The notes under the pieces are model-generated. The model saw only the letters and a list, made by a program, of their open reading frames with translations, made no database searches and was not told where the DNA came from. The position numbers were made by a program, and so were the translations under genes. Positions 1-36,520 of a stretch of DNA of 40,414 bases are shown piece by piece (the first letter of the stretch is position 1; the number at the start of each line of letters is the position of its first letter). The DNA is from a virus (lineage: Duplodnaviria; Heunggongvirae; Uroviricota; Caudoviricetes): IMG/VR virus record IMGVR_UViG_2917398303_000004, positions 1 to 40,414 of that record. One strand, 5' to 3'.

Positions 1-120
1 TTATATCACAGCAAACCCATGTGATGTCTCAATCACCAGGCTGTTAGCCGTAACTCCGCAGATCATATCAACATTCAGCTTTTTATCTACGTAGTCTTTT
101 GCTGGACTTGGAAAACCCAT
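1..120 (-). CDS. Short UmuD/S24-like N-terminal fragment (39 aa, MGFPSPAKDYVDKKLNVDMICGVTANSLVIETSHGFAVI)
   Basis: Own translation of the reverse complement of 1-120 (ATG at 120-118, TAA at 3-1); GFPSPAxDY motif resembles UmuD just after its Cys-Gly cleavage site; LexA box 19 nt upstream. Confidence 0.35.
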   Translation of the reverse strand: MGFPSPAKDYVDKKLNVDMICGVTANSLVIETSHGFAVI

Positions 121-137
121 AGAGCACACCTCACAAA

Positions 138-157
138 TACTGTTTATGCATACAGTA
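138..157. promoter_or_regulatory. Putative LexA (SOS) box TACTGTTTATGCATACAGTA
   Basis: Matches CTG-N10-CAG / TACTG(TA)5CAGTA consensus; palindromic; sits just upstream of the minus-strand short ORF. Confidence 0.55.
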
Positions 158-329
158 CTCTACATCTTGGCTATCGATCAACTTTGGTGATGATGCTAGA
201 CTTGTGAAATATCCTAAAAGAGAGGGCTACGGCTGCTACTCTTTCAAGAATATGCCGTTCTTAAATCAAAGTTAACGTTGCTCTATTGCAGCGTTTTTGT
301 TACTTAAAATTCATTGATACGGGTGTAGA

Positions 330-1439
330 GTGAGCAAAAGAATCGAGTTTGCAAACACGATACGAGGCGTTGCCAGCATGGTTGTTATGTTGGCTCATTA
401 CATAATATCGTTTAATGCCTTCTCTGGTGGCTATGGAGGCCTCCCAAAGATAGAAGGAGGTGTTTTTGATTATGCCTCTGGCCTGTTAGGTTTTGGGATG
501 CCAAGTTTCAGTTACGGAGCATTTGGTGTTGCTCTATTTTTTTTAGTTAGCGGCTTTGTAATACCATTATCTCTAACAAAATTAACAACTCAGCGGTATG
601 GTATACTTGCCTTCATGGTTTCACGAGTTCTAAGGATATGGCCCGTATATGTAATTGGTTTTTCCATATCTATGCTATTCCGATGGTTGTCATTCAATGG
701 CTCAGAACTTAGTGACGCCTACAACATTTATGATGTCATATACCACCTAACTCTTTTCAGGGATTGGATTGGCGGAATGCCTTTAGATGGTGTTGGCTGG
801 ACGCTTGAAATTGAGATTAAATTCTATCTGCTATCAGCAATATTTGCTTATGCGACGGTAAAAGGTAAGCAGTACATTACGATCGTTGCTATGGCAGGGG
901 CGTTTGCTGGGTACTACTTTGGCGTTCAGACGCCTATATATTTTATATTCCCGCACAGCATCCTGTATTGCTTCCAGTTCATACTGTTCATGACCATAGG
1001 CACTAACTTATACTTACTGTACGCTGGAGTGATCAGCAAGAACAAGGCCATACTATGGATAGGGGTGTCGTTAGGTTCATTTATTTATGTTTGCCCTCCT
1101 GATTCCAAAGTTGGATATCTTGTCGCATTTTTAGTGTTCCTGTCATGTTATGTCGCAAGAGATAGCTTTAATGGAGGTGCGATAACATCTTTCTTTGCAA
1201 AGATTAGCTACCCAATGTACGTTGTGCATGCTCTTTTTGGATATGTGACAATGTGGTACATGATAAATCTTGGTTTAAACACCTACGTCGCCCTGATTTT
1301 ACAAATATTGATGACAATATCGATATCATACTTAATGCATTTGTATGTAGAGATCCCCTCCCAAAAATATGGAAAAATCGCGTCTGACTTCATAACGGGT
1401 AGAAGGAAGGTAATTCCTGCTGGTATGGCTGTATCGTGA
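330..1439 (+). CDS. Acyltransferase family 3 integral membrane protein (O-antigen acetyltransferase-like lysogenic conversion candidate)
   Basis: 369-aa multi-TM protein, N-terminal R-G-x-A...LAHY motif typical of acyltransferase_3; GTG start; AT-rich relative to neighbours. Confidence 0.7.
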   Translation: MSKRIEFANTIRGVASMVVMLAHYIISFNAFSGGYGGLPKIEGGVFDYASGLLGFGMPSFSYGAFGVALFFLVSGFVIPLSLTKLTTQRYGILAFMVSRVLRIWPVYVIGFSISMLFRWLSFNGSELSDAYNIYDVIYHLTLFRDWIGGMPLDGVGWTLEIEIKFYLLSAIFAYATVKGKQYITIVAMAGAFAGYYFGVQTPIYFIFPHSILYCFQFILFMTIGTNLYLLYAGVISKNKAILWIGVSLGSFIYVCPPDSKVGYLVAFLVFLSCYVARDSFNGGAITSFFAKISYPMYVVHALFGYVTMWYMINLGLNTYVALILQILMTISISYLMHLYVEIPSQKYGKIASDFITGRRKVIPAGMAVS

Positions 1440-1446
1440 TAAGTAA

Positions 1447-1466
1447 GGGCCAGTGGTTTCTGGCCC
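1447..1466. terminator. Stem-loop between convergent acyltransferase and tail-fibre genes (GGGCCAG-N6-CTGGCCC)
   Basis: 7-bp perfect inverted repeat in the 34-bp gap between convergent stops. Confidence 0.4.
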
Positions 1467-1473
1467 TGCCTTA

Positions 1474-1917
1474 CTAAAAATTACCCTCTGACAGGAATGA
1501 ATAGGTTCCAGGCCCACCAGTAATGTTACACGTCCACGCTTTAGGCTGACCAGAGGTAGGATTACTATTGACTACACGCTCACCTTTTACCCATTCACCA
1601 GTGGTGGGAACGGATGCTCTTTTAAATTCAGTTTTTTTATAGGGAACTTTGTAATATGGTGTTCCCAAAATCATCAAACTAGGATCACAAATTAGCGCGG
1701 AGCCAGTGCCAACCTTAGAAAAGGATAACTGAATATCAGTTGCATCGCCTGGTACTTTTAAACAAATGCTTTTATAAACCCACGCATTACTTCCACCAAC
1801 TGGCACTGTTGCATCTTCTGAAAAATCACCGTTAATTGCCAATCGCAATTTGGTGGGGTTACCAAGGTCATTAACCCAAGCCCCGAACCAGACAAAATTA
1901 CTCCTCAGGAACGCCAC
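1474..1917 (-). CDS. Tail fibre C-terminal segment, in frame with and directly downstream of the 2029-3645 tail-fibre ORF
   Basis: Same reading frame as upstream ORF, separated by a single TAA (2029-2031) and 37 sense codons; GTG start at 1917. Confidence 0.45.
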   Translation of the reverse strand: MAFLRSNFVWFGAWVNDLGNPTKLRLAINGDFSEDATVPVGGSNAWVYKSICLKVPGDATDIQLSFSKVGTGSALICDPSLMILGTPYYKVPYKKTEFKRASVPTTGEWVKGERVVNSNPTSGQPKAWTCNITGGPGTYSFLSEGNF

Positions 1918-2028
1918 ATCATTTGTGATACTTGACCAAACCCTATCGCCATCAGTTACCTCAAATGCGAAATTACCATTAAGAACATACGACTTTTTAT
2001 TCAGAGCACCTGTAGTTCCGCTGACAGC

Positions 2029-3645
2029 TTACCATTCAAGTAGATTTCTGTCGGCAAAATTTCTATTGAAACTCGCACCATCAATATCAATAAAATGACT
2101 TGTGGATGGGTTCTCTATATTCCCATTCGACATATTTCCAAGATAGTTAACGGTGTTTTTTGAATTCGAACCGATATGCAATGGTGAATTTACTTGTGAA
2201 TACTTATTGCTTTTATATAAAGCGAGTAAATCATTAACCTTCGAAGTATCAAGTATCTGAGTTTTCTCAATGCTCAAGTTAGAGGCAAAGTTAGTAAAAA
2301 CAAATGAATTATTTTGTATTGTAGGAATGGTAAATCCAATTGGTGTAACATGCGAGTTTTTAACAGAAACGCATTGATTTATATATGGAAGGTCTAAAAC
2401 TAAGGTTTGCGTATTTAGATTAGATAGCAGATGAATATCTGATCTAACTAATACAACCTCTGGGGCCTGATAAGTTATTCCTAACTCACAGTTGGCCTCA
2501 TAATAGTTACTATCAAGATTAAGTGACTTGCAATTTACAGCAACTATTGCAGCCTTTTTATTCCCCTCCATGTTATTATAATTAACATTTATACTTAATC
2601 CTGCAAGCGGTGACGATGGGGTAATGGTAACCGCTACTCCATTATTGGCGTAAAATTTATTTCTTTGAACGTTAACATTATTGGCAATCCCAGTTATTTT
2701 GATGCTATCGCCAAAATTAGAGAAAACGCGACACCCTGTTATATCGTTACTATAGCCACCAAGATCAATGGCATATCCAATTGTGTTTGTAACAATAATA
2801 TTATCAATTTTAGTGTGATTACTCTCAGGAAGTAAAACTCCTTCCGTTAATCCATTACCATTAATACTGAAATCACTTAGCTCCAAAAAAGCAATTTCAC
2901 CAGATTGCTGGGTTATAAACGGAGATCCAGCCTTTGCTGAAAATAATGATGATTGATATGGCCCCTGACCTTCAATTTTTACTAGTTTGTCTTTTATGGT
3001 AATCCCAGGATCAACGTTAAACCCTCCCGCTGGTATTATAAACTTTGTTGCGCCAGAAGCATCATCAATAGCTTTCTGGAATGCTGCTTTGTTCTGAGCC
3101 CCAGTATTCCCGACTTTAAATCCGTAGTCAGAAAGCGTTACCAAATCCACAGCGAATTTGTCAGATACCGACATCGAAACGCCATCATTAAACTTAGGTG
3201 TATATGTAACGATGTCAGAACCCTTAATGGGGTTGTCACTGATTAAGTCTCCCCTCAGTGTAGCATCGCCAACACTCAACCATGCACCTGGCCCTATACC
3301 GCCTGTAGACGCAGGTGTTGACCCAGGAGGAACTAACTTAGGTAACAGCCCATCCCATCTGTAATATTCGCCATCACCATCAGGGAGCTTCCAGCGTAAT
3401 GCCTGATCTGCACGAGTTAAATCTGCACCGTCCTGGAATGAATCCATCATCGTCCATCCCATGGAGGATAGTTTTTCCTGATAACGCTTTTCCATTCCAT
3501 GCCATGTCAGTCTGGTCTTACCAAATCTATCAGGACATGTCTCATTTGATTGATCGTTTGAAAGGTAATCGAAGTTCTGCGCATTATCATACAAATCTTT
3601 TGCGGCAGAAGACCCCAGCGGATTGCCGGTGTTATAAGTAGTCAT
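2029..3645 (-). CDS. Tail fibre / tailspike protein (beta-helix-like repeats)
   Basis: Start at MTTYNTGNPLG with GAGG Shine-Dalgarno 6 nt upstream; repetitive N/G/S-rich beta-strand-like sequence; last gene of tail operon. Confidence 0.65.
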   Translation of the reverse strand: MTTYNTGNPLGSSAAKDLYDNAQNFDYLSNDQSNETCPDRFGKTRLTWHGMEKRYQEKLSSMGWTMMDSFQDGADLTRADQALRWKLPDGDGEYYRWDGLLPKLVPPGSTPASTGGIGPGAWLSVGDATLRGDLISDNPIKGSDIVTYTPKFNDGVSMSVSDKFAVDLVTLSDYGFKVGNTGAQNKAAFQKAIDDASGATKFIIPAGGFNVDPGITIKDKLVKIEGQGPYQSSLFSAKAGSPFITQQSGEIAFLELSDFSINGNGLTEGVLLPESNHTKIDNIIVTNTIGYAIDLGGYSNDITGCRVFSNFGDSIKITGIANNVNVQRNKFYANNGVAVTITPSSPLAGLSINVNYNNMEGNKKAAIVAVNCKSLNLDSNYYEANCELGITYQAPEVVLVRSDIHLLSNLNTQTLVLDLPYINQCVSVKNSHVTPIGFTIPTIQNNSFVFTNFASNLSIEKTQILDTSKVNDLLALYKSNKYSQVNSPLHIGSNSKNTVNYLGNMSNGNIENPSTSHFIDIDGASFNRNFADRNLLEW

Positions 3646-3701
3646 ATGGACCTCATAAACGAAAAACCACCGAAGTGGGTTTGTTAAGATGTTGTTTGTG
3701 A

Positions 3702-6419
3702 TTAAGCTACATTGCCGGGGTAGGAGGCATTGTCGTATTGATAGAAGGAGTCGCGGTATTCTTTTGCTGTAACCTGACATGTTCCGTCAGACTGCGGTGA
3801 AATCTCTGAGATTAGTGCGCTGTAACCAACACGTGAAGATTCGCAGAATATAAGGCGTGGAGGTTCGATAGATTGATCATTCAGTATGATGCCGATGAAC
3901 TCATCCTGTTCAGACACCGATAATTCATAATCACTAACCTTAGTAACTGGAAGCAAACCAGACGCTGAGCCATCCTGATAGCGAATTAACGCGCGCGGAT
4001 TGTTGAATGTCCAGTCAAGTGGTTCTGATACAGCGATAGTTGTTACACCACCTACAGTTCTCATATGATCAATCAAAGTGCTGATTGTTTTGCTACCTGG
4101 AATGTCATCAGTAAAAACAATTCGGTCGCCTACGTTATAGCAAAGCGCGTCCATTTCCGTGGTCGTGGTATGGGTCAAACGCTGCTGCCTGTACTTCATC
4201 AGCCTTCGCATGCCTATCTGATAAGCTCTGTCCTGATCAAGCACGCCATCAAGCGTATAATCTTCAACTTTAACTGGAGTAGGATTACCCGATGTTCTGC
4301 ACTGAACCGTCTCTTCAGCCCACGTAGTGCCATTAATGTAAGTGACATCCACGCCATCATAATCATCGGCTGATGGTGCAACGAAGGCCGTTTGAAGCGC
4401 TTCTGTCATTTCCTGCGGGCTAATGATTCCCGTCCACGTTTTCACCCCCTCCCTTCCAACAGAAGCCATACCATCAGACAGCAGGAAATAGCTTTTACCT
4501 GCACTGGTGACTTTCTGAAACATTTCAAGAGCGGAAACTGAGTCTGTTGTTGCGTAATCGAAAAACTCGCTATCAGGCGTCCAGTAAGATGATTCCAGCA
4601 TATCAATCGCTTCGTTATCCATCGCAAGCCCCAGCTCATTTCCAATGTGGTATAGCGCACCTGAAATGCTCCTGGAAATACCGGAATCATAAATGCGTGT
4701 GGCGACTACGTTGACACGGCGATCGGACTGAGCGGCAAGCTTTCCACCCGTTTCGACTGAGACAGCCATAGTGGTTACACCAGAGTATGATGATGGTCTT
4801 GAAAGCAACCTCCCCCTCAATGACTGCCAGTACATGTTATCCCTGCTGTTATCCTGACCTTGTTCGTTCGTTCTCCTGCATCTAACCTCTACCAAACCGG
4901 CTGATGCCAACGTGATACGCTCAGTAAAACCTAACCCATTAATATTTTGCTGATTGTAAGATCCAGTTTTGCTGGTCCAGCCTGAACCAGAACCGTAAAC
5001 ACGGTATTGAATTTCCCACTGAACAATCCTGTTCTGCTTCCTGCCCTTCTTGTTATACCCACAAATACCGTTTGGGAAGAAGAAATTGACCTCAAACATA
5101 TCAACGACTTCATTATCTGGACATGTGAGAAACGGCCCCATCCATTTATTGTTCTGATTTAATCCGTTTGCTTCAAAATCAAGCACTGTACGCGGCGTGA
5201 AACCTGGCCATTCCGGGTCAACAGCACCCTCTACAACACGCTGTAAAGTAACGGTGCTGGCGTCGATTTCCAGAATTTTATATTCGCTGCCTGAGTGCGA
5301 TACTGATAAACGAATGTATCCTTCAGGAATACCAGTAAATGCTGTTCCGGTTGCGCTTTCATACGCCAGAGCGATTGACGCCGTAACAACGTCTTCATCA
5401 ACAGGTTCTGAATGGGGGATGTAATCAGCAATGAAAAGCTGGTAATCGATACTGTTGTACCAGAGAGTAACTGGCATACCGATGTATGGAGCAATCTCTT
5501 CCAGTGTGTCACTGGTTATTCTGCTGTATGCGCCATCATTGGTGACAACATAAGAATCTGGAACAATCAGTTCAACAATTGCACCTTCTGTCCATGAGTC
5601 AGGAAGGTCGTTTGTATCAGTATTTCCATCGTCAGTACTAAGGCCGTTAAAGGTGATATCTGCACCAGATACCGTTAATGAATCTGCTACAACATCCTGT
5701 GTATCCGGGGCTGTCTGCGCCATATCAAGACCAGAACCAGATGCCGTTCCGCCTACTTCTGTTGAGTTGAACCAGTTTTCCGTTCGCTGATCACCGATAA
5801 TGTTCTGTCCTGGCTGATATACATTATAGGTAAACCCATCACCAAGAGAGGCGATTGGCGTTGACCCAACGCGAATGTCGCCATCACCAAATGAAAAACG
5901 GCCCATACCCAGCACCACAAACATTTCAACCGTCATTACAGTCGGATCATCAGTTGAGAATCTTGTTACTGGTTGCACTGCATAATCTGGATAAATACGG
6001 CTGCGACCAAATAACTCGCGTATCGGATCACCCAATTTCGCGTTATTCGCTTTAGCAGGATTTACATCAAGTGGATTACCTGTTCCTGATGAATAACCAC
6101 CAAGATCACCAACACCAGGAGCAAAGAATAAAGCGTAAGCTACAGACGCAACTGATACGGCAACTGCAATCCAGGCGAGAGCTACAGCACCGTAAGGAAC
6201 AGGATAAATTCTGACGTCGCTATCCGGGCTGATTGCGAACTCAAACCACGCCTGAGATGGAATATTTTTCCCATCAACGTCAATTGTGATCGGCTGTTTA
6301 ATATCAGGCTTATAGCCCTCTACTTTTTTTGACAGCCATTGATGTATGGTTATAGCGCCATGTTCATGTGTTTCCAGCGGTTCGCCGGGGATGCGGGAGG
6401 GGTAAATTCGGATAGTCAC
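3702..6419 (-). CDS. Tail tip / host-specificity (central fibre, J-like) protein
   Basis: 905-aa protein immediately downstream of NlpC/P60 tail assembly gene and upstream of tail fibre; start overlaps upstream stop. Confidence 0.6.
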   Translation of the reverse strand: MTIRIYPSRIPGEPLETHEHGAITIHQWLSKKVEGYKPDIKQPITIDVDGKNIPSQAWFEFAISPDSDVRIYPVPYGAVALAWIAVAVSVASVAYALFFAPGVGDLGGYSSGTGNPLDVNPAKANNAKLGDPIRELFGRSRIYPDYAVQPVTRFSTDDPTVMTVEMFVVLGMGRFSFGDGDIRVGSTPIASLGDGFTYNVYQPGQNIIGDQRTENWFNSTEVGGTASGSGLDMAQTAPDTQDVVADSLTVSGADITFNGLSTDDGNTDTNDLPDSWTEGAIVELIVPDSYVVTNDGAYSRITSDTLEEIAPYIGMPVTLWYNSIDYQLFIADYIPHSEPVDEDVVTASIALAYESATGTAFTGIPEGYIRLSVSHSGSEYKILEIDASTVTLQRVVEGAVDPEWPGFTPRTVLDFEANGLNQNNKWMGPFLTCPDNEVVDMFEVNFFFPNGICGYNKKGRKQNRIVQWEIQYRVYGSGSGWTSKTGSYNQQNINGLGFTERITLASAGLVEVRCRRTNEQGQDNSRDNMYWQSLRGRLLSRPSSYSGVTTMAVSVETGGKLAAQSDRRVNVVATRIYDSGISRSISGALYHIGNELGLAMDNEAIDMLESSYWTPDSEFFDYATTDSVSALEMFQKVTSAGKSYFLLSDGMASVGREGVKTWTGIISPQEMTEALQTAFVAPSADDYDGVDVTYINGTTWAEETVQCRTSGNPTPVKVEDYTLDGVLDQDRAYQIGMRRLMKYRQQRLTHTTTTEMDALCYNVGDRIVFTDDIPGSKTISTLIDHMRTVGGVTTIAVSEPLDWTFNNPRALIRYQDGSASGLLPVTKVSDYELSVSEQDEFIGIILNDQSIEPPRLIFCESSRVGYSALISEISPQSDGTCQVTAKEYRDSFYQYDNASYPGNVA

Positions 6420-20318: not shown

Positions 20319-20904
20319 GTAACCTCCATGCTCTACGTCTTTCTGTTCTTGGCTGATTGTCTCTGGCTGGTTCCACTGGCTGTCCGTCAGCGTGGTCAAC
20401 GAGCGAATAGCATGGATAGACAACAGGACCACCGTAAGCATCGCCTACTGCATAGTCTGCTGCTTTGCCGTGATTCCATTTATCCAGAACTCGCTTGATA
20501 TGCTGATGCGGTACGCTGTAGCAGACGCCATGGATCAGGCGTGGAAGTGTGATGTAATCCGTTCTGCTCTTATCTGCTGCGATTAGCTTTGATGCTATAT
20601 CGAGTTGATATTGTGGAGGACGACCAGTACCGAGATAGAAAGAAACCAGCGCATCAGGGAAGCGCTCAATCCACTCAGCGAGTTTGTTGGTGAACCCATC
20701 AACTGGAATTGCATCGTCTTCTAAAATGACCACTCGGCAAGACTGCTCTTCTGCCCATTCAAGAGCACGGCGGTGATTCCAGTTAGCACCGTTATCTCCC
20801 GTGTCGATAAGCAGTAATGCACCTATCGACTCTGCCAGAATTAATGCTTTTTTGTGGCGCAAATGGTGACCAACAACCACAAACTTTACTTGTGCCTCCA
20901 CCAT
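20311..20904 (-). CDS. Hypothetical protein, possible GT-A-like nucleotide-sugar transferase
   Basis: 197 aa; beta-strand/helix start KFVVVGHH and acidic VVILEDD segment suggest a DxD-type fold; overlaps both neighbours. Confidence 0.4.
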   Translation of the reverse strand: MVEAQVKFVVVGHHLRHKKALILAESIGALLLIDTGDNGANWNHRRALEWAEEQSCRVVILEDDAIPVDGFTNKLAEWIERFPDALVSFYLGTGRPPQYQLDIASKLIAADKSRTDYITLPRLIHGVCYSVPHQHIKRVLDKWNHGKAADYAVGDAYGGPVVYPCYSLVDHADGQPVEPARDNQPRTERRRAWRLHV

Positions 20905-22343
20905 GCCAACTCCTTGCCAACGCCTTCAGACTTGAAGATGGTATGAACCTTCGGCCCGGTAATAACCTTGTTGCCAAATGACTTTGCCACCATGCAAAAT
21001 GCACCCATATCAACTTTCGTTTCTGGAGCTTTCTCAATCTTCCAGAAGCGATGGCTTTCAATCAGATAATGCTGACGGATGATACGATGCGCGAACTCCA
21101 TAACGTCTTCACGGCTACCACCTAACAGGCCAGCATTAAGCAGTGGTTCATCGCGATGCTGCTCGATGAAATCGCTATACGCCTTGCCGTGGTGATTAGC
21201 TTTCATCCATTCGTCAGCATACGTCTTGTGCTCTGAGCCAACGTAAATTTTACCCGACTTCATTTCTTCCCATGGCTCTCGCAACATTTCAACGTCAGTA
21301 CCATCAGTGCACCAGACAAGGTGATACTCAGGGTGCGCACGTAGAAACTGATAGATGTGAAGCCAGCGGGCAAAGTATGGGCTCATGTCCACCAGCGGGA
21401 CTTCCCCCAAGCCAGCACCAGTTGGCGATTCTTTTAATTCGTCAGCCAGGACGATCGGTAATGCGCCGGATATTGAGTCAGCCCATGATTGCAAAACCTG
21501 CGGGTCGGGTTTCATCTTCCCGCCGCGCTGTGGGTCTGGCTGGCTTGTGAGTAGCGTCGTAATCACCAGATTTGGGTTTCTGCTGTACGAGGCAAAGCCT
21601 GTATAACCGCTGTCGCGTCGCGTGTTGAAGATGCCAACGTTTCTTTTTACCAGCGCCTCTCGGTCAGGTCGTGGAATTGAGCGCGTGCCCTCTTCGTTCT
21701 CATCCATTGAATGAATCAGTTTTTCAGAGCCGGCCACATCAGCGAACGCCCAGGTCGATAACCCGGCATTGTGAATGCGTAGCGCCAGATCGGGATGCTC
21801 ATACATGCCGCGACCATAAACCGGATCGAAACCGCCAACCTTCACGATCGCGCTGCGGTGGTAATACAACATCACACCGCGTTGTCCGGTGTAAGCGATA
21901 TGCTTATCATCCCGGTACAGCACAGCCATATCATTAAGCTTTCTCGGCCCAGCAAGATCGAGAAACTGGTAAGCCAGGTGCGGCTCGGGGGATTCGATGT
22001 AGGGAAGATGCCAGTTATCAGCGATGGGCCATGCATCATCATCCCATAGGAAGAAATGCTCGCACCCCGCGTCCATAAGTGCTGAAAGGCTGGCGTTCTT
22101 TGATGCAACTATTCCGAGAGATGTTTTATGACGTAGCAACTTCACACCTTCTGGAACTACAGCAGCATGGTTTGAGCCATCATCGATAACAACCACCAGC
22201 GCACCAGATGGAAGATGCTTCATGTGCTGCTCAATAGAGCGTTTAAGCACTTCAGGACGGTTATGGGTTGTTATTGCGATGCCAATTCGCGATGAGTTGG
22301 TGCATTCTGGTACAAAACGCACACCCCCTATTAAGACTTCCAT
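20886..22343 (-). CDS. Family-2 glycosyltransferase domain protein with approx 250-aa C-terminal domain of unknown function
   Basis: N-terminal IGIAITTHNRPEVL...VVVIDDGS...FFLWDDDAWP matches GT2 signature incl. DxD; no TM segments seen. Confidence 0.65.
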   Translation of the reverse strand: MEVLIGGVRFVPECTNSSRIGIAITTHNRPEVLKRSIEQHMKHLPSGALVVVIDDGSNHAAVVPEGVKLLRHKTSLGIVASKNASLSALMDAGCEHFFLWDDDAWPIADNWHLPYIESPEPHLAYQFLDLAGPRKLNDMAVLYRDDKHIAYTGQRGVMLYYHRSAIVKVGGFDPVYGRGMYEHPDLALRIHNAGLSTWAFADVAGSEKLIHSMDENEEGTRSIPRPDREALVKRNVGIFNTRRDSGYTGFASYSRNPNLVITTLLTSQPDPQRGGKMKPDPQVLQSWADSISGALPIVLADELKESPTGAGLGEVPLVDMSPYFARWLHIYQFLRAHPEYHLVWCTDGTDVEMLREPWEEMKSGKIYVGSEHKTYADEWMKANHHGKAYSDFIEQHRDEPLLNAGLLGGSREDVMEFAHRIIRQHYLIESHRFWKIEKAPETKVDMGAFCMVAKSFGNKVITGPKVHTIFKSEGVGKELAWWRHK

Positions 22344-34997: not shown

Positions 34998-35480
34998 ATG
35001 ACGACCACACAGAACGTCACTGAGTTACAACCACGTATGACAAGAGAGCAACTGATCGATGCAGCCCGTAAAGCGGCCCCTCTCCTTCCGGTTGCTTACC
35101 GCGGGATCATGACCGAACTGGCTAACCGTCTTGATATCGTCAGCGTGGCGCTTTGCGAGTCAATGGAACAGCGTAAAGCACTGGCCATCGAGAACACCGT
35201 TTTACGAGACGATGTTAATTGTTGGGCCAAAGAGTGCGACCGCATCGTTGAACGTCATACCAAATCGCCGACCAATATGCACATGCTGGAGGCGCAGAGA
35301 GAATTACGCGAGTTAACTCCGGTAACCGATCAGGTTATTCGCGATATCCAAGCCACTGGCGTGGAAAAGTTCGCAAACGTCACTATTGCCATTGGGAAAG
35401 AAGAGCAACAAGAAACCATTGTTTACGCTGGGAATCAGGCTCTCTTATTCGCTAACCAACTCCGTGAAGGTATTGCGTAA
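34998..35480 (+). CDS. Hypothetical early protein
   Basis: Start at MTTTQ with GGAG Shine-Dalgarno; TAATG coupling to downstream ParB-like gene. Confidence 0.5.
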   Translation: MTTTQNVTELQPRMTREQLIDAARKAAPLLPVAYRGIMTELANRLDIVSVALCESMEQRKALAIENTVLRDDVNCWAKECDRIVERHTKSPTNMHMLEAQRELRELTPVTDQVIRDIQATGVEKFANVTIAIGKEEQQETIVYAGNQALLFANQLREGIA

Positions 35481-36520
35481 TGGCAGCTAACTCATTCAAA
35501 CAGATGTCCCGTGACGGAACCATCAAGCGCACCGATACCGGGATGTTTATCAGCCTTGAACATATCCACGTGCGTGAAGGTTTCAACAAGCGTGAAGACG
35601 ACGAACGCACCCGCCAGGCAGATGATGACCTGTTTAACTATCTGATGAACGGCGGCACCGTCCCTCCACTGGAGGTTATCGCACGTGATGAAGGTGGTGT
35701 GTGGGTTGTTGAAGGCCACCGCCGTCGCCGTTGCTATGCGCGTTGTGCTGAAGCTGGTAAGCCAGTAGACCGTATTCATATCATGCCGTTTAACGGTAAC
35801 GATGTGCAGCGTCTGGCTCGCATCATGACCAGCAATAACCAACTCCCCCTTTCCGATATTGAACAGGCTGCTGTTATTCAGGAGCTTCATAACGCTTTCA
35901 ACCAGACCACCAGCGAGATTGCAAAGCTGGTCAATAAATCCGTGGCTACTGTTGAGAAGTTGCTCACTCTGAGTACCGCTAATTATGACGTTCAGCAGGA
36001 AGTTAAATCTGGTGCCGTATCTGTTGATGTTGCTGTTGACCGCGTTCGCGAGTTTGGCGAACAGGCTGGTGAAGTTCTCCAGCACGATAAAGCCGTAGCC
36101 GCCGCCCAGGGGAAAGCAAAGGTTACGCGCAGTCCTATCGCTCCGGAACTCAACATTAAAAGTGCTCGCCGTTTCGTGGAGTTAATGGCCATGGCGACGA
36201 TCAGCGATGAAGGCGTATTCACTTTGCAAGGCACGGCACTGGCTGAAGCTCTGGTAATAATCGACGAACACAAAGCCATTGCTGAAGCTCGCGAAACCTA
36301 TCGCCTATCACAGCCAATTCCTACGACAGAGATTATCGGGAAAGTGCTGTATGTGAAGCTGGACGGTAAGGAAATCGGCTCGGCAATAATTTATCGCGGT
36401 AAGAACGTCACGCTCGACCTGGGTGACAGAAAAATCATCGCCAGCCAGTCAAAAGCAGTGGCCCACTTCGTTAAACAACACAAACTTCAGCAGGTACATA
36501 CCAATGCAAACGATCAATAA
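35480..36520 (+). CDS. ParB-like nuclease-domain / HTH protein
   Basis: VVEGHRRRRCYA (ParB GxRR box) followed by HTH-like segment. Confidence 0.65.
   Translation: MAANSFKQMSRDGTIKRTDTGMFISLEHIHVREGFNKREDDERTRQADDDLFNYLMNGGTVPPLEVIARDEGGVWVVEGHRRRRCYARCAEAGKPVDRIHIMPFNGNDVQRLARIMTSNNQLPLSDIEQAAVIQELHNAFNQTTSEIAKLVNKSVATVEKLLTLSTANYDVQQEVKSGAVSVDVAVDRVREFGEQAGEVLQHDKAVAAAQGKAKVTRSPIAPELNIKSARRFVELMAMATISDEGVFTLQGTALAEALVIIDEHKAIAEARETYRLSQPIPTTEIIGKVLYVKLDGKEIGSAIIYRGKNVTLDLGDRKIIASQSKAVAHFVKQHKLQQVHTNANDQ

Follow-up and report, generated by a model that had tools for sequence, protein, structure and literature searches.

A prophage-borne AT3-only acyltransferase gene convergent with a tailspike gene in Escherichia: a probable modifier of the host O-antigen

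The 40,414-nucleotide viral record IMGVR_UViG_2917398303_000004 (Caudoviricetes), analysed here at its full length and called the window, carries near its left end a gene for a membrane acyltransferase of acyltransferase family 3 (AT3) that converges on a tailspike gene. The AT3 open reading frame (ORF) occupies positions 330..1439 on the plus strand (369 codons, with a GTG start immediately 3′ of an in-frame TAG), and its exact product, WP_135491493.1 of Escherichia sp. E4694 (contig PDIB01000034.1), is already in public records under the generic label "acyltransferase". A sequence-only reading of the window had proposed that this gene, paired with an adjacent "tail fibre", serves lysogenic conversion and superinfection exclusion. 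The locus, the protein and the other genomes in which the gene occurs make this reading probable in its main point: the enzyme would alter the O-antigen of the host and so hide the receptor from tailspikes like the one encoded beside it.

The locus at the end of a leuZ prophage

The window derives from a lambda-like prophage of ~40.9 kb integrated in the leuZ tRNA-Leu gene of E4694. The element is defined by an exact direct repeat, at least 60 nucleotides (nt) long, of the 3′ part of tRNA-Leu(taa), which is present at both ends (L006 9261-9320 = L014 7130-7189); the left attachment (att) repeat lies 352-411 nt to the left of window position 1, which is position 9672 of L006. On that side the host sequence contains tyrP, yecA and a 3′ fragment of tRNA-Leu; at the other end the integrase gene ends at window 40414 and is followed by intact tRNA-Leu(taa), tRNA-Cys and tRNA-Gly genes, and then by pgsA and uvrC. 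The prophage encodes a large terminase, portal, major head protein/protease, major tail protein, tape measure, gpJ-like protein, endolysin, Q antiterminator, CI-like repressor and integrase. AT3 starts ~0.7 kb inside the yecA-side att site, between the tRNA-Leu repeat and the tail genes, and is the sole sizeable plus-strand gene at that end, the integrase lying at the opposite end beside the intact tRNA. The position at the prophage end and the orientation against the whole structural operon, both claimed in the sequence-only reading, are borne out by the att repeat, by the intact tRNA beyond the integrase and by the ORF coordinates, with the stop of the convergent neighbor at 1474. That reading would have been undermined by conservation of the gene at the same locus in non-lysogenic strains. 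When window 1-2100 was compared by megablast with 50,697 phage records, nothing matched, and among 5,426 complete E. coli genomes only positions 1-121 did, with no DNA match to AT3 at ~85% identity or better and hence no annotated twin of the gene; AT3 is therefore not a conserved chromosomal gene at the leuZ locus but part of an att-bounded prophage.

The neighbor of AT3 is not a tail fibre gene: its product is a beta-helix tailspike with Pfam Tail_spike_N (PF18668) and right-handed Beta_helix (PF13229) domains. The N-terminal 538 amino acids (aa), comprising anchor and beta-helix, are encoded at 2032..3645 on the minus strand (L006 gene call; phrog_8846 positions 41-502, E 5e-133). An in-frame TAA nonsense codon at 2029..2031 (-), corresponding to phrog_8846 position 503, cuts off the C-terminal 184 codons, which continue in the same frame at 1474..2028 (-; phrog_8846 504-689). 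Translated in one frame, 1474-3780 (-) contains this stop as its single interruption in an otherwise open frame of 769 codons. The two parts align colinearly with the 875-aa tailspike of a phiV10-like E. coli prophage (L001), to whose residues 692-875 the C-terminal 184 codons are 52% identical, and full-length relatives (46-51% identical, 707-873 aa; the prophage's own truncated product aside) read across the TAA site. The nonsense codon reflects either a genuine mutation or, with lower probability, a mistake in the assembly. Because no start codon with a ribosome-binding site follows it, the C-terminal domain is probably not made, and the prophage may produce a truncated, possibly non-functional tailspike. 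Two other explanations of the split were rejected: (i) a 147-aa ORF at 1474..1917 was considered as a separate gene, for instance for a chaperone or a tail fibre assembly protein, but it continues the tailspike frame and aligns colinearly with homologs made as a single chain, and (ii) systematic recoding of in-frame stops was set aside in view of the other same-frame ORF pairs, which look like ordinary adjacent genes in their coordinates and start codons.

Base composition sets this region apart, if not in the way first described. The G+C content (GC) of AT3 is 0.407 (0.416 at third codon positions, GC3), compared with 0.479 for the window, 0.489 for the tape measure gene, 0.47-0.48 for the host flanks and 0.463 for the gene of the gpJ-like tip attachment protein (3702..6419 (-); Pfam FNIII-A_GpJ and Phage-tail_3), the last backbone tail gene upstream of the tailspike. 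The claim that AT3 has clearly lower GC than the adjacent genes thus holds against the window, the gpJ-like gene and the host flanks and fails against the adjacent tailspike, which is as low or lower (0.387 for the whole 538-aa ORF; 0.350, with GC3 0.269, for the beta-helix segment 2029-3099), so the low-GC island consists of AT3 together with the receptor-binding part of the tailspike rather than of AT3 alone.

The 34-nt spacer between the AT3 and tailspike stops (1440..1473) is filled by a stable hairpin with a minimum free energy of -18.8 kcal/mol (z -4.13; matched by 0 of 200 shuffles), which is kept but for one base in L001 and is probably a bidirectional terminator with weak U-tracts. 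Its GC-rich inner stem (1446-1467) had been taken into the gene, which explains the end at 1466 given earlier. A second terminator-like hairpin with a T-run lies at 274-295 (+), on the same strand and ~35 nt upstream of the AT3 start, and may be an insulator, a leader or a chance occurrence. An attenuator or riboswitch in the AT3 5′ leader was considered and dropped, since the fold of 200-345 is no better than that of shuffles (z -0.7); an Rfam search of 1-2100 found no RNA family.

A constrained AT3-only membrane acyltransferase

A hidden Markov model search with Pfam Acyl_transf_3 (PF01757 / IPR002656), the check on which the sequence-only reading had staked its assignment of a 369-aa multi-spanning acyltransferase, gives a clear match: residues 8-336 align to profile positions 4-324/326 with 68.7 bits (E 6.1e-19; the curated gathering cutoff is 31 bits). 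PHROG 3333, "O-acetyltransferase", also matches (E 4.5e-37), and the predicted structure described below agrees. An NCBIfam scan found no model or equivalog for the protein, and a PDB sequence search found no match. A scan of genome contigs at the species level, one genome per species, returned mostly chromosomal relatives of 25-40% identity from soil bacteria and metagenome-assembled genomes, which are uninformative on function.

The residues expected of an active enzyme are in place. The motifs essential across the AT3 family are R/K-X10-H in transmembrane helix 1 (TMH1; Arg14/His25 in OafB) and RXXR where TMH3 meets the cytoplasm; a Glu close to the C terminus also matters for function (PMC9833829; PMC9558356). 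In the window protein they read R12-GVASMVVMLA-H23, R99-VL-R102 and E341; across an alignment of 53 homologs covering 26-93% identity, H23, R102 and E341 never vary, and R12 and R99 are kept in at least 90% of the sequences. AlphaFold2 predicts with high confidence (predicted local distance difference test score, pLDDT, 92.3; predicted template modeling score, pTM, 0.91) an all-helical, multi-spanning protein of ~10 long helices (6-30, 62-86, 91-122, 156-177, 182-196, 215-231, 237-254, 257-275, 284-313 and 318-356) and no extra domain; the predicted topology thus has the ~10 transmembrane helices typical of the family. Among solved structures, Foldseek places entries of the human acetyl-CoA transferase HGSNAT closest to the model (probability 0.96-1.00, TMq 0.44-0.49) and finds no bacterial AT3 structure; the BFVD viral structure library yields a single, unnamed match. 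The resemblance to HGSNAT agrees with the transmembrane acyltransferase fold proposed to be shared by these proteins (PMC12423673). Acyl_transf_3 is the sole Pfam domain, and the chain stops ~28 residues past E341, within or just after helix 318-356; there is no SGNH domain, and the protein belongs to the AT3-only type, not to the AT3-SGNH fusions.

The gene is also constrained. Against a 91%-identical E. coli allele, the ratio of non-synonymous to synonymous substitution rates (dN/dS) is 0.116 (59 synonymous and 27 non-synonymous changes). By these sequence measures, the ORF is a real AT3-only enzyme gene under purifying selection. Its start codon is GTG here and TTG in the L001 allele.

A cassette shared between phage backbones

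AT3 recurs in other genomes within a segment of constant borders. This exchangeable cassette (322..1584, 1.26 kb) comprises the ribosome-binding site, AT3, the spacer hairpin and the final ~37 tailspike codons; its left border lies 8 nt ahead of the AT3 start and its right border ~110 nt within the 3′ end of the tailspike gene. Over its length the window is 91.3% identical at the nucleotide level to phiV10-like E. coli prophages (L001-L005), with which, outside the cassette, it shares only a 71.6%-identical segment in the tailspike gene (2996-3447). The same borders appear at 77% identity in a prophage remnant next to guaA (L007/L008), where a holin-like ORF, AT3 and a tailspike stub of ~50 codons alone are left between host yfgI-like genes and guaA. 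At least three settings harbor the cassette: a lambda-like siphovirus integrated at leuZ and, at guaA, both phiV10-like podoviruses and the stripped-down remnant. In the phiV10-like prophages the AT3 protein (P0001, 93% identical) is encoded between holin/endolysin genes and the 875-aa tailspike gene, on which it converges across a 34-nt spacer, and the slot is flanked by genes whose sizes match those of phiV10 (600/824/85/875 aa on one side; a 134-aa membrane protein, holin and endolysin on the other). AT3 itself is a mosaic: positions 760-1120 are 98-100% identical to the phiV10-type allele of L001 and positions 340-640 are 83-88% identical, which indicates recent intragenic recombination between alleles.

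At the other end of the cassette, the last ~37-47 residues of the tailspike (window 1477-1584 (-), …PTTGEWVKGERVVNSNPTSGQPKAWTCNITGGPGTYSFLSEGNF) are far more conserved than the remainder, and this end also matches the C-terminal ends of the tail fibre PHROGs 21471 and 23059. The conserved C-terminal module may be a recombination anchor.

Could AT3 be a silent, decaying passenger of a defective prophage, with no current function? Both neighbors carry in-frame stops (the tailspike at 2029-2031 and a umuD-like ORF at window 1-3), the start codon is not ATG, no clear promoter was found, and of the genome's second copy only 213 aa are left. (This copy, TGB79300.1, lies on another contig of E4694 and represents the 83%-identical "guaA-side" allele.) We nevertheless hold decay to be very improbable: the ORF is full length with all essential motifs intact and a dN/dS of 0.116, and intact alleles persist even in the guaA remnant of several Escherichia lineages (L007/L008/L017), which suggests retention by selection.

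The position that AT3 takes beside the tailspike is filled by other genes elsewhere. Beside tailspikes 46-51% identical to that of the window, it holds gtrA (L110/111), a gtrC-like gene with gtrB and gtrA, followed by a LexA-boxed S24 gene and an integrase gene (L112), or a different AT3, 23% identical to the window AT3 and followed by an integrase gene (L113-115). Related tailspikes occur in O26:H11 strains, and one partial member of the AT3 alleles carries the label O26:H40. Among more distant AT3 relatives, a 51%-identical Pseudomonas protein has its gene behind those for a gpJ-like protein and a tail fibre; ~9 of the 14 IMG/VR viral contigs that carry relatives of 30-51% identity have a match to a tail fibre or spike family within two genes, and two further ones have a glycosyltransferase moron beside AT3. 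A more far-reaching view, which we offer tentatively and regard as doubtful, is that the unit of evolution is the 1.26-kb cassette itself, a plug-in element that recombines via the conserved tailspike 3′ end and outlives its phage, so that the host would have domesticated a receptor-masking gene as a standing anti-phage defense; both in the guaA remnant and beside the interrupted tailspike of the window, AT3 is intact and under purifying selection.

Proposed receptor masking and its alternatives

Four groups of characterized systems give the locus its most likely meaning. In phiV10, the slot filled by P0001 holds oac, likewise convergent with the tailspike/tail fibre gene and annotated as a gene whose product [quoted passage not shown] (experiments summarized in PMC11854483 and PMC9558356). 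The phiV10 Oac protein, an O157-antigen acetylase (PhiV10p26, AAZ95944.1; 338 aa; PF01757 E 5.8e-36), is AT3-only like the window protein yet shows no significant similarity to it beyond the family model (BLASTP E 0.11; hhalign probability 0.8%), and by sequence the window lineage is a non-orthologous replacement. The backbones differ as well, phiV10 being a Uetakevirus and the window prophage a lambda-like siphovirus. The tailspikes of L001 and phiV10 have only their N-terminal 208 aa in common, and the receptor-binding part of the window tailspike is unrelated to that of phiV10; as the AT3 proteins are dissimilar too, receptor-binding part and acyltransferase differ jointly and have been exchanged as a pair. 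In Shigella phage Sf6, gene 15 encodes an AT3-only Oac (333 aa), the 2-O-acetylase of O-antigen rhamnose; the gene converges on tailspike gene 14 with a terminator between them and sits, as the window AT3 does, between the tailspike and the att/int end. The two proteins share the logic of the R-X10-H and RXXR motifs, but the similarity is remote (hhalign on the N-terminal ~170 residues only, probability 96.7%, E 3.8e-10; Sf6 Oac was not reported by tblastn of the phage collection with the window AT3), and the host O-antigen is different. Salmonella OafA and OafB carry the same essential residues in their AT3 domains; in these fusion proteins (AT3-SGNH) an 11th helix is followed by a periplasmic SGNH domain that carries out the last transfer, and the window protein lacks both (PMC9558356; PMC9833829). 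OafB, the family II GtrC of the BTP1 prophage, is prophage-borne and protects against the BTP1 tailspike (PMC9558356). Finally, the gtrABC cassettes of P22, SfX, Hf4s and others occupy the same slot distal to related tailspikes (L110-L112) and follow the same logic of seroconversion and exclusion (Hf4s preprint), although they glucosylate via undecaprenyl phosphate-linked glucose and comprise three genes for unrelated proteins in place of the single AT3 gene. The slot of the window AT3 is equivalent in position both to phiV10 oac and to gtrABC, and this gene context, with the Sf6 layout and the different AT3 beside related tailspikes, upholds the proposal of lysogenic conversion.

Would the acceptor have to be O-antigen? 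A functional AT3 could instead acylate another surface glycan (group 1/4 capsule or K-antigen, enterobacterial common antigen (ECA), lipopolysaccharide core or periplasmic glucans), with the benefit of protection from other phages or host factors rather than from its own phage. Acceptors of AT3 enzymes are diverse: the family also acylates ECA, capsules, osmoregulated glucans, peptidoglycan and secreted glycans, and the stand-alone members include WecH (ECA), IcaC and MdoC (PMC9558356). Beta-helix tailspikes can be capsule depolymerases, and the neighbor of one AT3 relative (L109) matches a PHROG named "EPS depolymerase"; outside the enterobacteria, the closest AT3 relatives belong to soil-bacterial chromosomes and have generic annotation only. 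We consider this alternative unlikely nonetheless, as the other occupants of the slot beside related tailspikes are gtrA/gtrABC-type genes that act on O-antigen (Hf4s preprint) and the same slot of the phiV10-type backbone holds the O157-antigen acetylase.

Another possibility reverses the effect on the phage: acylation could create or maintain the receptor form that this tailspike family needs, or be neutral to the prophage's own phage while excluding unrelated O-antigen-dependent phages. Phage G7C requires an O-acetyl group and Hf4s grows worse without it (Hf4s preprint), and the presence of the same AT3 allele beside ~50%-identical tailspikes argues against a tight lock-and-key exclusion. 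Because every characterized case in this layout (Sf6 Oac, phiV10 Oac and BTP1 OafB) blocks the phage's own tailspike (PMC9558356; PMC11854483), we give this possibility little credence.

We therefore return to receptor masking, for which the following mechanism can be proposed. AT3 would be a moron (cargo gene) transcribed against the late operon and expressed in the lysogen, and its product a stand-alone ten-helix enzyme of the inner membrane. If the published AT3 model carries over, a cavity open to the cytoplasm, with R12, R99 and R102 in its walls, would take up acetyl-CoA or another acyl-CoA, acetyl being the presumed donor group; the thioester would come to lie close to H23, on the periplasmic side, for the acyl group to be handed to a sugar hydroxyl of a surface polysaccharide, presumably O-antigen. 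O-acylation of host O-antigen in the lysogen would then change the serotype and spoil the receptor for tailspikes of the type encoded next door, leading to superinfection exclusion of cognate phages.

Several observations weigh against this proposal. With a premature stop in its tailspike, this prophage may have lost a working AT3/tailspike pair, and self-exclusion may be moot for it. Across the two prophage types AT3 is 93% identical while the receptor-binding parts of the tailspikes are ~50% identical, which weakens the case for a strict one-to-one match between acyltransferase and tailspike. The pairing with the adjacent receptor-binding gene claimed in the sequence-only reading is seen in the convergent arrangement and the 34-nt spacer and is weakened by the TAA split of the tailspike and by the sharing of one AT3 by ~50%-identical tailspikes. 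The acceptor is not readable from the fold, given the variety of AT3 acceptors, and by sequence the window protein is not the ortholog of any characterized Oac. The GC argument is weaker than earlier claimed. A promoter scan upstream of AT3 found no convincing sigma-70 promoter, with a count below shuffle expectation, and as the shared cassette begins just 8 nt before the start codon, expression would rest on local signals; the hairpin at 274-295 lies outside the cassette. For AT3 and its close relatives, support is drawn from sequence and context.

Other features of the prophage deserve mention. To the left of AT3, positions 138-157 form a perfect LexA (SOS) box, TACTGTTTATGCATACAGTA. Downstream of it, a minus-strand ORF starts at 120 with a UmuD/S24-like N terminus (MGFPSPAKDYV...), for which comparison with an E. 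coli UmuD sequence serves only as a lead. This is the ORF with the in-frame TAA at window 1-3, after which ~65 codons are open beyond the window (region examined: window 1-157 and L006 9463-9800); in a related Citrobacter prophage, the corresponding place is taken by an intact 129-aa S24 gene that has a LexA box. A 485-aa ORF at 20886-22343 (-), located between lysis region and terminase, matches PHROG 1579, "glycosyltransferase" of the moron category (E 7e-227), and Pfam GT2 weakly, below threshold, and may be another cargo gene that modifies the host or DNA. The early region contains a dATP/dGTP pyrophosphohydrolase-family protein (PF04447; 37370-37924 (+)) and a ParB-like helix-turn-helix protein (35480-36520 (+)), both from the precomputed L014 gene calls.

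The principle exemplified by Sf6, phiV10 and BTP1 is textbook knowledge (PMC9558356), and the AT3 locus extends the catalogue. What is new is modest: an uncharacterized AT3 lineage, clear cassette borders in three contexts, and intact copies both beside a dead tailspike and in a remnant. If active, the enzyme alters the chemistry of the host O-antigen and with it serotype, susceptibility to O-antigen-dependent phages and possibly immune recognition, a change relevant to phage typing and therapy and to genome-based serotyping. As the lineage is one without a characterized member, its acceptor sugar may be worth determining. The locus offers a natural example of how receptor-binding and receptor-modifying neighbors are swapped as modules between unrelated phage backbones.

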